Shown here piece after piece: positions 2,835 through 15,041 of a DNA stretch of 64,000 nucleotides. How positions within the stretch are numbered: position 1 is the first letter of the stretch; the number at the start of each line of letters is the position of its first letter. This DNA comes from a virus (taxonomy: Duplodnaviria; Caudoviricetes), in IMG/VR virus record IMGVR_UViG_3300031993_000007. One strand, given 5' to 3'. Under the pieces are notes generated by a model. The model did no database searches. It was not told where the DNA came from and saw only the letters and a program-made list of their open reading frames with translations. Both the position numbers and the translations under genes were made by a program.

Positions 2835-3880
2835 TAAAGGATGCTGGCCAATATCTAGACGATCTCATAATGTCGGTGTATACTGGGGCCACCAGCATCG
2901 ACTATAATCGGACTCAGCGAATCATCAGATGCTTTGATTGCGGTGACTCTGACAAACAGGATCACGCTCATCTTGGCATTTCTCTGGTTCCTCCGTTTCT
3001 GTATCACTGCCATAGGTGCGGATTCGGAGGAGCCGTAAATGAAGAATTCTTGTCTAGACTCGGAATAAAAATAGACAAGAAGCTTCATGATATTCTGGCA
3101 GAGAACCGCAAGATCGTCATGACGGCGGCAAAGACTAAACAGCGCTCTGGATCTACTCTTGTTAATAGGATCTTGAATGGAGCGTTTGCAAGTCGAAAAC
3201 TTCATCTTCCAAACTACACTGACGCCGATCGACAACGACCTAATTTCAGGTATCTTTGCGATCGATTTGGTGTAGAATGGACTCTAGAGGATGCGAAAGC
3301 TTTTAAATTAATTCCGTCCTTGAAGAGGTTTGGAAGGGCTAACTTCCTCCAAGAGTGGCCTGAAAAACCAGAGGTTTTAGATGTCCTTCATACAGACTAT
3401 GCTGGATTTCTGGACTACGCCGGACAAGAAATTATCTTTCGAAGGATCGTTGAAAGTGAAAGCTCAAGATACTACGAGATAAAATTCTCTAAGGCTCCGT
3501 TCAGATTATACACTATCAGCAGGCAAGTTCCAGTAGCTACATCAAGGCTTCAGCTCATTTTGGCCGAAGGAATTTTTGATGTGATAGGTCTGTATAACAA
3601 GTTTCCTGAATTCCGTAATAATGCTGTCTTTGCAGCGATGCTAGGAAAGTATCCGGATAGCATTATGGACTTCTTCTTTAGACTTGGATTCTTTGCTCAA
3701 GACGTTATGATCTTTAAAGATAATGACGTGAATGACTGGAAATACATCAATGGAATAAAGAGATTGAATTATCCAAAAAAGCTTGGATTTACTGTCAAGG
3801 TTCTGCACAACGAAACAGGGCATGACTTTGGAATTCCGGCTAATGAGATCCGTCTGGATTCTGCTAGACGAATTTTATAA
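2831..3880 (+). CDS. DNA primase (Zn finger + TOPRIM)
   Basis: CFDCGDS...HCHRCG Zn ribbon; TOPRIM ILAEGIFD and FKDND. Confidence 0.8.
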   Translation: MIKDAGQYLDDLIMSVYTGATSIDYNRTQRIIRCFDCGDSDKQDHAHLGISLVPPFLYHCHRCGFGGAVNEEFLSRLGIKIDKKLHDILAENRKIVMTAAKTKQRSGSTLVNRILNGAFASRKLHLPNYTDADRQRPNFRYLCDRFGVEWTLEDAKAFKLIPSLKRFGRANFLQEWPEKPEVLDVLHTDYAGFLDYAGQEIIFRRIVESESSRYYEIKFSKAPFRLYTISRQVPVATSRLQLILAEGIFDVIGLYNKFPEFRNNAVFAAMLGKYPDSIMDFFFRLGFFAQDVMIFKDNDVNDWKYINGIKRLNYPKKLGFTVKVLHNETGHDFGIPANEIRLDSARRIL

Positions 3881-11730: not shown

Positions 11731-14700
11731 TTAGTGCTTATTTTCGTTGTCTGACGGTTCAAGCTTTAATCCGAGGACAGTAAAGTAAGCTTTCAGAAGC
11801 TCCTTGACCGTGGAGTAAGATCCCTTCTTGACTTCAAGATTATGACCGGGTTCCTTCTGAAGAAGTTCGCTGATAAGCTGTTCTCGATCTGCCTTGTTAC
11901 TGCTGTGGAAGTCCAGCATTTCGAAAACGCTCTTGTTGTCATTAATCAAAGCCAAGTTTGCAAGTTCCTGCTCACCAAGGCGGACAGGAGTATTGCTGTA
12001 TGGGCTTAGCCTATTGCGATAGTTACGATTAGCCTTGTTCGGAACACCCTTCTGGTTAATCTGGCCACAAGAACGGACACTCATCTTAGAGCTCGGTTCA
12101 TGACGCAGTTTGATGAAGTACATATAACCAAAAGTCATCGGTGTTTCAATGCCCTTGAACTTGGTCGTAGTGATGCCAAGGGCTTCACGAACATCCATGA
12201 GCTCTTCGAACTCAATGTTTCCAAAGAAAGGAGGCATGTGAACCGGAACACCCTTCTTATAGAAGTCATCTACAATTGCATCACGGCTGTCTTCATTTTC
12301 TTCGATGAATTTGCAGATACTTTCATACATATCGAAGCCCATGTTCATCAAAAGTTCCTTGAGCTTTTCAAGCTTGGTCTCGCTATCGGAGTTGCGCCAT
12401 CTGTCAAGCCACTGCTTGACGATAGCTGTGATCTCTAATTCGTAGAGACACCCAGGGTTAATTCTATTAAGAACACCCAGAGGGTTCAAGCATACTTCGG
12501 CTCTTTCGCCATCTTCGGTTTCCGGCATTTCAACATCAGGTACAATCTTAACCGGAACAAATCCTTCCTTAGAGTCTTTTTCAGGAACGATCGTACTAAT
12601 TACCATTTATCTTTAAAAGGTTCGCAACACCTTTCCTCTATTTCTAGAGCTTTGTATTTCTACAAAGATGAGACTATATCTTCACCCTTTCGGGGCCATC
12701 CATTTCGAGCTTGCATATGCTTCAAGCCCTACTCCCTTTCGGGATAGTCGTTGAACGTTGAGCTTCTAATTTCAATTCCTTTCGGATCTTTCGTACATAT
12801 CCGTTAGTAACGAAAAATCCCGCAGTCTTTGCTATGACCTGGACTTGCATTCCAGATTTAAGCATTTCTGCAATGGTATTTCGCTGTTCCTCTGTATACA
12901 TTATACGTCTCTTATACATACTATGAGCGTGTTCTACATTTTCTTTTGCAGTGCACCACTCAAGATTTGATAAGTAGGAATGCGTTTTTACACCATCTTT
13001 ATGGTTGACATAATTCTTTCCTTCTTCTTTTTCAAGGAAATATTCTGCCACCAGTCTATGGATAAAGAAGTCTTTTTGTTTATCATTAACCATAAGCTTG
13101 ACTTTTAGATAGCCATCAAGACCTTCACGAGTAATCATGATTCGGCCTTTTGTATCGTTTCGTACTCTTCCGTATTGACTTATGGAGTAATCTGTTCCAA
13201 TTATCTTTTTCTAGATTTCTCCAATCTCATCTTTATCGAAATATTGTACTTCTCGTTTCTTTAAACCCATGCGAACAACTTTGTGCTCGATAGATCTAAT
13301 TCCACGATTAAGAGCTACAGACAGCTCTTTATTAGTCATTTTCTTAAAGTTGCTGATTAAGAATTTTTCGTCTTCTTTTGTCCAAGACTCTCTCATTAGA
13401 AGCTCCTTCGCTGCGGATTGTCCAATACTCAATGCTCTTACCTTACCTCCATCTTTCTTGGAGGACTCTGTAATTAAACAGTCGGTGTTTGAGTCTTAAG
13501 GAGTTTCCCGCAATTAGAATGGTTACATTTAAATGTTTCCATTTAAAGGAGCATTAATTTCTACCCTTTCCACCATCATTTATGTTCAGGTTAAGTCGTT
13601 AATTTAACCCCGTGGATTAAACCACTGCTCTAACTATTATGCTAGAGATCAGACTATATCTTTCTCCGTTTAAACGGAGACCTTCCATTTCCGCTAACTT
13701 TAGCGTACTCTACTAGATTCCTCACTTTGGAGGTCGTTCGATAGTCGTTGAGCCTTCGTCTATTAGGTATAGACGCTTGGTTGCTGATTAACTGGATTTA
13801 TATTCCAGCATCCCAGCAGTTAAGAAGGTTTTCATTAGATATTACTATCTAATGCGGCAATTATTTACCGATTGGTGATTTTGGATCCGATCATAGCTGG
13901 ACGCTCATCAACAACTGTGACCTCGATAACCATGTTGTCAAAGCTGTTTTCAGAGAGCCACTTCTTCTTGGAGCTATCGTCTGTATCGATACTATCCTTG
14001 GCTCTGGTATACGCAAAGGAAGCGTCAGCCGTCAACAATCCTTGTTCACGATACGGAGCCAGAGTCTTCACAAGTTCTTCATCATAGGCCTCTTGCCTGA
14101 AGATAAGATCCCTGAGCTGTTCGTATACCGGATCGTTCAAATCTTCTGCATCACGGTTGCAATAGACAAAGATATCGTCCACTACACCATGACCGTAGTA
14201 AATTGAGTCTGTGCTTGCGATCTTACACAGAGCCTCATCGTTCAACTGGTTAGCCATCGTCATGTTAACCATACGACGACGACCACAGAGAATGCCACCC
14301 TTAATTTCTTCGCCGATCTTTGGCAATCCCTGATAAGTCTCCTTATCTCCATACAAATTTAGGAGAAGGTCGTTGCTGTTCACCGGGATTTGATACTTAG
14401 AAACCGTGGCATGAGACAACTTCTTAGCAGCCGTCTCAGATAGCACAATACTATCTTCAAAAGTCATACCAGCATTGGCATAGTACACAGTCTTCAAGTT
14501 TACTCCATACTTGAGATTCATGCACTCGTCATACGCTGTAGAGTTGGACAGGATCGTGCCTTTATTAATTTCTGTGATATTTTCCCAGTTTTCAAGGTCT
14601 GGGATTTCATTCTTGTATCCATAGTCTTCTGTCAAGTTGGTGGCAGTGGACAGCTGGATTACATCTACCTTTTTAGATTCTTTGTACTGTACAATCACCG

Positions 14701-14968
14701 AATAACGCCTAGCGTTTCGTGCGATTACCTTCAAGACGGTACAGTCTTCCTTCATCCTAACATAGGATGAAGATACTTCGCCAATCTGATTTTCAAACCT
14801 TGTAAAGACTTTCGGAATTTCTCCATGCGTCAATACAACGGCCTGATTAATGTGGTTTGTAAACATCTGAATTCTTTGGGTGTCATTCTTGTCGGCATTG
14901 GGTACCAACAGCACTTCACCTAAGAAGTCATGGGTTTCCGGTTCTCCGGTTATTGCTCTAGCTGGCAA
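11731..14968 (-). CDS. rpoB: RNA polymerase beta subunit, C-terminal half (non-virion type), spliced: 14968-13867, 13576-13563, 12603-11731 (662 aa)
   Basis: Joined exons restore GSKITNR-YGGKG-VISTIVP; also FEDSIVLSE, NPLGVLNRINPG, YFIKLRH, PVRLGEQE; total 1989 nt, in frame. Confidence 0.9.
12604..13562 (-). mobile_element. Group I intron 2 (959 nt) carrying an HNH gene
   Basis: 5' exon ends in U; core AAUUGCGGGAA, AAUCCGCAGC, UUCAACGACUA, AAGAUAUAGUCU; ends AUAAAUG. Confidence 0.9.
12722..13396 (-). pseudogene. Intron-encoded NUMOD4-HNH endonuclease with in-frame TAG
   Basis: ORFs 13211-13432 and 12722-13138 share a frame: GEI*KKIIGTDYSISQYGRVR...IHRLVAEYF...VNHKDG...NLEWC; TAG at 13213-13211 sits where NUMOD4 has Trp; ATG 13396 follows AAGGAG. 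Confidence 0.8.
13577..13866 (-). mobile_element. Group I intron 1 (290 nt, no ORF)
   Basis: P1 CGGU/GCCG with U-G pair at splice site; core AACUGCUGGGA, AAUCAGCA, UCAACGACUA, AAGAUAUAGUCU; ends in G. Confidence 0.9.
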
Positions 14969-15041
14969 TTTAACTCCTTTCTTGCTGCTGTGAAATCCTT
15001 GGTAGATCTAAGGCAGATCTACCAAGTTGTAATATAAGATT

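Follow-up and report, generated by a model that had tools for sequence, protein, structure and literature searches.

How an RNA polymerase subunit could be produced from a gene in which a conserved motif is encoded by only 14 nt, placed between two interruptions, and whether this arrangement acts as a regulatory device, are the questions raised by a locus in the IMG/VR virus record IMGVR_UViG_3300031993_000007. A 64,000-nt stretch of this record (hereafter the window) was analysed, and all the features of the gene reported below lie on its minus strand. The gene encodes the C-terminal part of the beta subunit of a non-virion RNA polymerase (nvRNAP), and a preliminary description of the locus, made from the sequence alone, had proposed that two tandem group I introns flank a micro-exon within it. 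The coordinates and sequences given there all proved correct when the minus strand was reread, and the arrangement goes well beyond what chance would produce. We conclude with high confidence that two separate mobile group I introns are located 14 bp apart in the nvRNAP beta C-terminal gene, and that the micro-exon is a by-product of two homing sites falling in one motif. The genome record is complete, with a length of 259 kb and terminal repeats, and the DNA runs holding it derive from bovine gut; the phage, a jumbo phage from this environment, resembles AR9, PBS1 and phiR1-37.

Joining of three exons restores a conserved polymerase subunit

Exon 1 (13867..14968), which appears in the list of open reading frames (ORFs), starts with a TTG codon at position 14968, preceded by a ribosome binding site (AAAGGAG, 14980-14974) read in the sequence, and ends with AAT CGG T. 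The micro-exon ATGGTGGAAAGGGT (13563..13576, 14 nt) provides, together with the last T of exon 1, the codons for Y-G-G-K-G. Exon 3 (11731..12603) starts with GTA ATT AGT (VIS) and consists of 290 codons and a stop. When the three segments were joined in silico (1102+14+873 = 1989 nt), a coding sequence for 662 amino acids with no internal stops was obtained, reading GSKITNRYGGKGVIS across the junction region, that is GSKITNR-YGGKG-VISTIV, which matches the 662-residue frame proposed in the preliminary description. Removal of both introns thus restores the host frame and the conserved protein sequence. By contrast, skipping the micro-exon in silico led to a frameshift with a stop two codons on, the loss of frame on skipping having been correctly anticipated, and retention of intron 2 led to a stop after three codons. 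Read-through of the unspliced RNA is precluded by two TAA codons, one created at the 5' junction of intron 1 (CGG T|AA) and the other in frame at three codons from the start of intron 2.

The same conclusion on the micro-exon emerges from profile comparisons. The PHROG 3295 profile ('RNA polymerase beta subunit') is matched by exon 1 over positions 12-400 (E 5e-60) and by exon 3 over positions 406-695; the intervening positions 401-405, absent from both, are filled exactly by the micro-exon. In the Pfam family PF00562 (Rpb2 domain 6), exon 3 scores 37.2 bits, above the cut-off of 23.4, and exon 1 scores 20.4 bits, under the cut-off, while the GxKG motif of this domain comes from the micro-exon. 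We take the YGGKG motif to hold the conserved active-centre lysine of the beta subunit. The closest solved structure is chain C of the AR9 nvRNAP (PDB 7S00; E 1e-58 with exon 1), and the identity to AR9 g089, phiR1-37 g261 and gp155 of the Bacillus pumilus phage BpSp is 34-37%; with AR9 g089 it amounts to 33.8% over exon 1 (tblastn) and to 37.3% over the joined protein. No second PF00562 match was detected in the 259-kb genome, so that the polymerase gene must be functional.

Homologues read through the motif without interruption

Alignment with intronless homologues, which the preliminary description had put forward as a check, places the motif in one piece at the position predicted here. Specifically, in the metagenomic contig L022 the gene is uninterrupted across both junctions, with 86% amino acid and 76% nucleotide identity over 661 aligned codons, and reads KITNRYGGKGVISVKVPEKK, with the same YGGKG residues; this contig is our strongest evidence for the predicted junctions. 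The closest annotated relative, AR9 g089 ('non-virion RNAP subunit, beta C-terminus'), is likewise uninterrupted and reads GSKITGRYGNKGVIS. It belongs to a set of about 50 homologues carrying [YFVSHM]G.K[GS] at the micro-exon position. Among IMG/VR viral loci, 14 of 15 are uninterrupted through [YFVS]G.KG at both sites, the exception (L021) having an intron after YG, and most of the 34 metagenomic relatives with sequence at the motif are uninterrupted as well. These relatives were found by alignment-based scans, a single-protein scan of viral contigs for close relatives having found nothing. Two degenerate junction patterns run over viral contigs, which were too loose, hit 238 loci, one of them with an intron core nearby and none in a polymerase gene.

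One relative showed a peculiarity at the motif itself. In L058 (6160-6175) an in-frame TGA occupies the invariant glycine of GNKG (YGNK*TV), which suggests a jumbo phage reading TGA as glycine (genetic code 25).

Each interruption has the core of a group I intron

Intron 1 (13577..13866, site A) has a length of 290 nt and, in keeping with its initial portrayal as ORF-less, contains no ORF of at least 40 amino acids on the gene strand; one listed 47-amino-acid ORF (13150-13293) lies on the strand opposite to the polymerase gene. Intron 2 (12604..13562, site B) has a length of 959 nt. Searches with the group I model RF00028 of Rfam, whose gathering score is 50 bits, gave 66.6 bits (E 1e-14) for intron 1 over the full model (1-253; match 13876-13628). 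For intron 2, a permissive search returned two half matches, one at the 5' side (13572-13302; 18.3 bits, E 0.07), extending from P1 to P6, and one at the 3' side (12925-12650; 38.9 bits, E 5e-8), comprising the R and S elements and P9. The conserved splice-site U.G pair of the model falls at U13867 for intron 1 and at U13563 for intron 2, in agreement with P1 pairings of CGGU/GCCG and GGGU/GCUC, respectively, the second possibly extending up to 8 nt with one mismatch or bulge. The 3'-terminal G (omega-G) maps to 13577 in intron 1 and to 12604 in intron 2, and the combination of a U.G pair at the end of the 5' exon with a terminal G holds in all the related introns inspected. The two introns also share identical 3' tails, ATAAATG, as previously noticed.

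Folding supported the same assignment. The minimum free energy (MFE) fold of intron 1 recovers P2-P9.2, including P7.1 and P7.2. When the ORF loop of intron 2 was replaced by a tetraloop, its MFE fold contained P2, P3, P4, an extended P5, P6/P6a, P7.1, P7.2, P8, P9, P9.1 and P9.2; P7 (GACUA/UAGUC) was read directly. In addition, intron 2 could be aligned over all core elements with ORF-less relatives which score 75-91 bits in Rfam (MAFFT/RNAalifold), and compensatory changes were observed in P8, P9 and P9.2 of this family alignment. The proposal that each intron has its own core is therefore borne out by the RF00028 matches, the MFE folds and the RNAalifold consensus. Both introns belong to subgroup IA of the Michel-Westhof classification, on account of P7.1 and P7.2. 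As for P10, that of intron 2 would involve UAAUU of exon 3 and intron nucleotides 4-8, a weak, AU pairing.

Intron 2 carries a recently disrupted homing endonuclease gene

A feature on which the preliminary description was silent is a homing endonuclease gene with an in-frame stop (12722..13396), contained in the P6a loop of intron 2. Its product has an N-terminal helix-turn-helix, a NUMOD4 and an HNH_3 domain, and a C-terminal helix-turn-helix. The P6a stem consists of 10 bp formed by GAGCUUCUAA (13396..13405) and UUAGAAGCUC (12760..12769), the latter being perfectly complementary to 13405-13396, and closes a loop of 626 nt. The 5' strand of the stem overlaps the Shine-Dalgarno sequence (AAGGAG, 13408-13403) in part and includes the first base of the AUG start codon (13396), and at the other end the final 17 codons overlap P6a', P7 and P7.1. 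Since the Shine-Dalgarno sequence and the start codon lie in or beside the P6a stem, the folded ribozyme should mask translation of the endonuclease, a masking by the intron fold which is known for some T4 intron endonucleases.

The HNH_3 domain is recognized in the ORF with 26.4 bits (cut-off 24.8). The ORF is not intact, as one in-frame TAG (13213-13211) occurs at a conserved tryptophan of NUMOD4; when this codon is read as W, a NUMOD4 match spanning the stop scores 32.9 bits (cut-off 23.4), and PHROG 59 (HNH endonuclease) is matched with an E value of 7e-35. Recoding of TAG as an amino acid was ruled out, given that TAG terminates 27 of 80 long ORFs under code 11. In contigs of three independent bovine RNA runs the same codon is TGG (plus-strand 13212 T>C). 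As TAG is an ordinary stop here and TGG is found in these contigs, the endonuclease appears to have been freshly inactivated in this genome, by a TGG-to-TAG change, and to be intact in circulating copies.

The arrangement recurs in phage BpSp

The Bacillus pumilus phage vB_BpuM-BpSp (KT895374; here BpSp) has both sites A and B occupied around a 14-nt exon, TCGGGAACAAGGGT, in its region gp155...gp158. There, exon 1 ends in AGA T and is followed by a 297-nt ORF-less intron (83 bits); a second intron, of 986 nt and with a LAGLIDADG gene, comes after the short exon, the next exon starts with GTT ATT AGC, and a third intron is inserted after NPLG. Joining the four exons yields 655 amino acids, 69.5% identical to AR9 g089, while the BpSp record annotates the pieces of the polymerase as separate or hypothetical genes. 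A literature search found no paper describing this layout of two introns and a 14-nt exon in BpSp. The likeness between the two phages concerns the orthologous nvRNAP beta C-terminal gene, the insertion points after the first base of a Y/F codon and after GxKG, and an ORF-less upstream intron followed by an ORF-containing one. The two differ in that the genes are only about 37% identical at the amino acid level, the downstream ORF is LAGLIDADG in BpSp and HNH here, BpSp has the extra intron after NPLG, and it has strong P10 pairings, of 10 and 9 bp, in contrast to the weak ones of the phage studied here.

The motif is an apparent hot spot for intron insertion

Site A can be occupied alone. Contig L029 carries at the identical site an intron homologous to intron 1, with the same exon end (AATCGGT) and the same guide UAAUUGCCG as here, and with an ORF for a Zn-ribbon nuclease. 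The near-identical sister contig L028 lacks the intron. Four silent changes, no more than 10 nt from the insertion site, separate the two (AAC CGT TAC GGT in L028, AAT CGG T|AT GGC in L029), the flanks being identical at 13-15 of 15 positions per bin (L029:2440-2460 and 3833-3850, compared with L028:6090-6125). These differences look like the expected footprint of homing with co-conversion, or alternatively like a footprint of immunity to the endonuclease.

Further introns were observed after YG in L021, L036, L047 and L057, after NPLG in BpSp and L047, and further downstream in the Bacillus phage Internexus, adding up to at least five intron sites within about 35 codons around the motif across the relatives. 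Taken together, this distribution indicates that the polymerase motif is an intron hot spot, in which a 14-nt exon would arise whenever sites A and B are both filled. Site B of the phage studied here and site C (after NPLG) of L047 and BpSp have a common target, GGGT|GT(A/T)AT (L047:2130-2385, L002:5955-6250, window 12600-12610), and the intron closest in sequence to intron 2 is the site-C intron of L047, whose target contains GGGT|GTAAT; this suggests spread between sites B and C within one gene.

The Internexus element deserves a separate mention. It is a group I-like intron after NPLGVFNRLN (L003:4690-6040) with an ORF for a Zn-ribbon nuclease; Rfam reported nothing for it at E<0.01, and its exact splice sites could not be placed by the U/G rule.

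Two independent mobile introns as the preferred interpretation

These data lead us to the following view, in which the exon-intron anatomy and junctions, the homologues and the recurrence of the layout are shown by the sequences, while we infer that the introns self-splice, that their two reactions are independent, and how the pair arose. Two mobile phage introns of IA type are inserted, with 14 bp between them, where the beta C-terminal gene is most strongly conserved, each folding as a complete ribozyme with a guide of its own: that of intron 1 pairs with the terminal CGGU of exon 1, and that of intron 2 with GGGU, the last bases of the micro-exon. Self-splicing of both would be needed for exon 1, the 14-nt exon and exon 3 to be joined into the 662-residue frame NR-YGGKG-VIS. 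The histories of the two elements were probably separate, as the site-A intron, ORF-less here, is found elsewhere alone, where it has a nuclease gene and a footprint of co-conversion, and the site-B intron carries the HNH/NUMOD4 endonuclease in its P6a loop, recently inactivated by the nonsense change. The micro-exon would thus be a by-product of two homing sites in one conserved hot-spot motif, rather than a designed regulatory device.

Some observations weigh against this interpretation. Both half matches of intron 2 are under the gathering score of RF00028, and they are split by the 626-nt ORF loop. A convincing P10 between intron 1 and the micro-exon is absent, the canonical pairing being nearly nil. 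When intron halves were compared pairwise, introns of this phage and of BpSp that occupy one and the same site were no more alike than introns at different sites; a specific kinship of the same-site introns is therefore not upheld, and the pair may have had either a common or an independent origin. Lastly, four bovine RNA runs hold 5-10% of the sampled words and gave contigs on the intron 2 ORF and on intron 1 with 90-99% likeness, but these contigs cover intron pieces only, none bridging an exon-exon junction, and are uninformative for or against splicing. One RNA contig joining 12756 to 13495, perhaps from an ORF-less relative of intron 2, has 21 nt on one side; it was considered too weak and was not used.

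Signals upstream of the gene bear on its possible regulation. The TTG start is preceded, at a distance of 62 nt, by the sequence TATATTAC (15029..15036), of which the window contains 10 copies where 3.4 would be expected. This sequence resembles an early promoter of AR9 type, a function suggested by its likeness to the early-promoter consensus of AR9 and MarsHill, TATATTAT (bioRxiv 10.1101/2020.12.14.422802). A 9-bp hairpin, GGTAGATCT/AGATCTACC, lies between this element and the ribosome binding site of the polymerase gene (15001-15023), with no T-run after it.

In AR9, the non-virion RNA polymerase transcribes the late genes. With an early-type TATATTAC ahead of the gene, delayed splicing would delay the late polymerase. 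The preliminary description had envisaged that the shared exon may force the two ribozymes into a fixed order and that splicing could gate late transcription. The premise stands as far as geometry goes, given that the 14 nt serve intron 1 as its 3' exon and intron 2 as its P1 strand, and mis-splicing does yield a dead product. However, the bases need not compete. In BpSp, nucleotides 1-10 of the micro-exon are engaged in a P10 of 10 bp with the upstream intron and nucleotides 11-14 in P1 with the downstream one, without overlap; as, in addition, intron 1 has almost no P10 here, nothing in the pairings demands a splicing order, and each ribozyme could in principle act regardless of the other. 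The gating role finds no support because most relatives lack introns: L022 and most homologues manage without either, which makes the arrangement dispensable, and its distribution resembles the turnover of selfish elements. We consider both the forced order and the gate to be very improbable. Still less credible, to the point that we give it hardly any weight, is the view that no splicing occurs and that exon 1 (367 amino acids) and an ORF from ATG 12606 (291 amino acids) encode separate subunits. ORF callers do return two ORFs here, the ATG (12606-12604) is in frame with exon 3, and BpSp is annotated as separate ORFs; but the invariant YGxKG would be lost, no Shine-Dalgarno sequence precedes ATG 12606, each interruption is a complete ribozyme delimited by the canonical U and G, and the homologues are single-chain proteins, that of the solved AR9 nvRNAP included.

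More room is left for two further possibilities. Substantial exon skipping, in which exon 1 is joined to exon 3 through the 3' end of intron 2, would lead to a shortened, out-of-frame product, which might be waste or might act as a down-regulator, and is compatible with two independent mobile introns. The identical AUAAAUG tails could favour it, and a 7-bp pairing (-4.7 kcal/mol) exists between the 5' guide region of intron 1 and the first bases of exon 3, which is better than the canonical P10 of that region with the micro-exon. Moreover, skipping is documented for phage group I introns, including Twort orf142, and affects 47% of the transcripts of SIOphi; in it the 5' splice site of an intron is ligated to the 3' splice site of the intron that follows (PMC11878797). 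On the other hand, the 7-bp pairing is AU-rich and could be due to chance, L029, which has no second intron, shares the UAAUU guide segment, and the RNA-run contigs gave no junction data, so we regard skipping on this scale as rather unlikely. Somewhat better placed, albeit still doubtful, is the idea that the two introns form one cassette, the ORF-less intron 1 being co-converted when the endonuclease of site B, 14 bp away, homes. In the two loci observed with an intron at site B, those of this phage and of BpSp, site A was filled as well, and each time the ORF is found in the downstream intron and not in the upstream one. It is established that ORF-less introns can home collaboratively or in trans (PMC3984707), and co-conversion tracts are visible at the locus in L028/L029. 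Yet these are two cases only, the site-B endonucleases differ (HNH and LAGLIDADG), the intron cores of the two phages are not specifically alike, and a site-A intron can have its own nuclease, as in L029. A combined model, in which the pair is a functional unit whose upstream intron rides the co-conversion tract of the downstream endonuclease, while the shared AUAAAUG and the guide of intron 1 allow the upstream ribozyme to use either the proximal or the distal 3' splice site and the ratio of productive to skipped RNA sets the amount of late polymerase, seems to us quite improbable.

Comparison with known systems

Several elements of this picture have precedents in phages and organelles. Twort orf142 reportedly contains three group I introns and undergoes exon skipping, as Landthaler and Shub are said to have described in 1999. 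In work dealing with phiNIT1 rNDPL and SIOphi, cDNA sequencing revealed a small exon lying between two introns, and the skipped SIOphi gene is called terminase in one passage and polymerase in another (PMC11878797). The Twort, phiNIT1 and SIOphi systems thus share with the present locus a clustering of several group I introns in a single essential phage gene, together with small or skipped exons; they differ in the genes concerned (tail tube, ribonucleotide reductase), and splicing in the phage studied here is predicted. The occurrence of introns in RNA polymerase genes of AR9- and phiKZ-type phages, cited in the preliminary description as known, is indeed documented in the literature (bioRxiv 10.1101/2020.12.14.422802; PMC11620839). 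AR9 and MarsHill have introns in such genes (bioRxiv 10.1101/2020.12.14.422802), although AR9 g089 itself is intronless. PhiPA3 gp210 resembles our case in having a group I intron with an I-HmuI-like HNH endonuclease, which is a nicking enzyme, at conserved catalytic residues of a jumbo-phage RNA polymerase beta subunit; it differs in being a virion polymerase with a single intron, inserted after two conserved Asp (E. coli D675) (PMC11620839). Organellar micro-exons, such as the 1-bp exon of placozoan cox1, are likewise tiny exons enclosed by group I introns, in a gene for a conserved catalytic protein, but they are mitochondrial, partly trans-spliced and protein-aided, and are not phage elements driven by homing endonucleases (PMC5436844).

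Accordingly, phage RNA polymerase introns and multi-intron phage genes were already known, as were small exons and skipping, published for Bastillevirinae and Twort, and the locus presented here is a well-supported new example at a new site, conceptually an incremental addition to the knowledge of phage introns. Its practical relevance lies in annotation. Gene callers and public records, that of BpSp among them, break such genes up into two or three ORFs treated as unrelated, with the catalytic motif altogether lost, and recognition of the 14-nt exon is needed for the correct annotation of jumbo-phage polymerases. In addition, the locus shows a tight clustering of homing sites on one active-site motif, and L029 and L028 represent a natural intron-plus/intron-minus pair with a clean footprint of co-conversion type. 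As BpSp is cultured and has the same layout, splicing order and skipping around a very short exon are directly testable there.

Other features of the gene and of the genome

Exon 3 opens with a 15-residue insertion, beginning VISTIVPEKDSKEGF, right after GVIS (12559-12603). The insertion is present in the intronless L022 and absent from AR9, BpSp and most relatives, and is a lineage-specific feature. Its origin as a duplication or scar of intron invasion was ruled out, the intronless L022 having the same insertion. A true 3' splice site 45 nt downstream was also discarded, as L022 shares the insertion and no in-frame alternative site ends in G.

Outside the window, the same genome contains a third group I intron (L004:1500-2520; G000:C1:164784-165800), which scores 92 bits. 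It interrupts an RNA polymerase beta-prime gene right after NGDYDG, within the metal-binding motif, and carries an ORF for a treble-clef zinc-finger protein (DUF4379).

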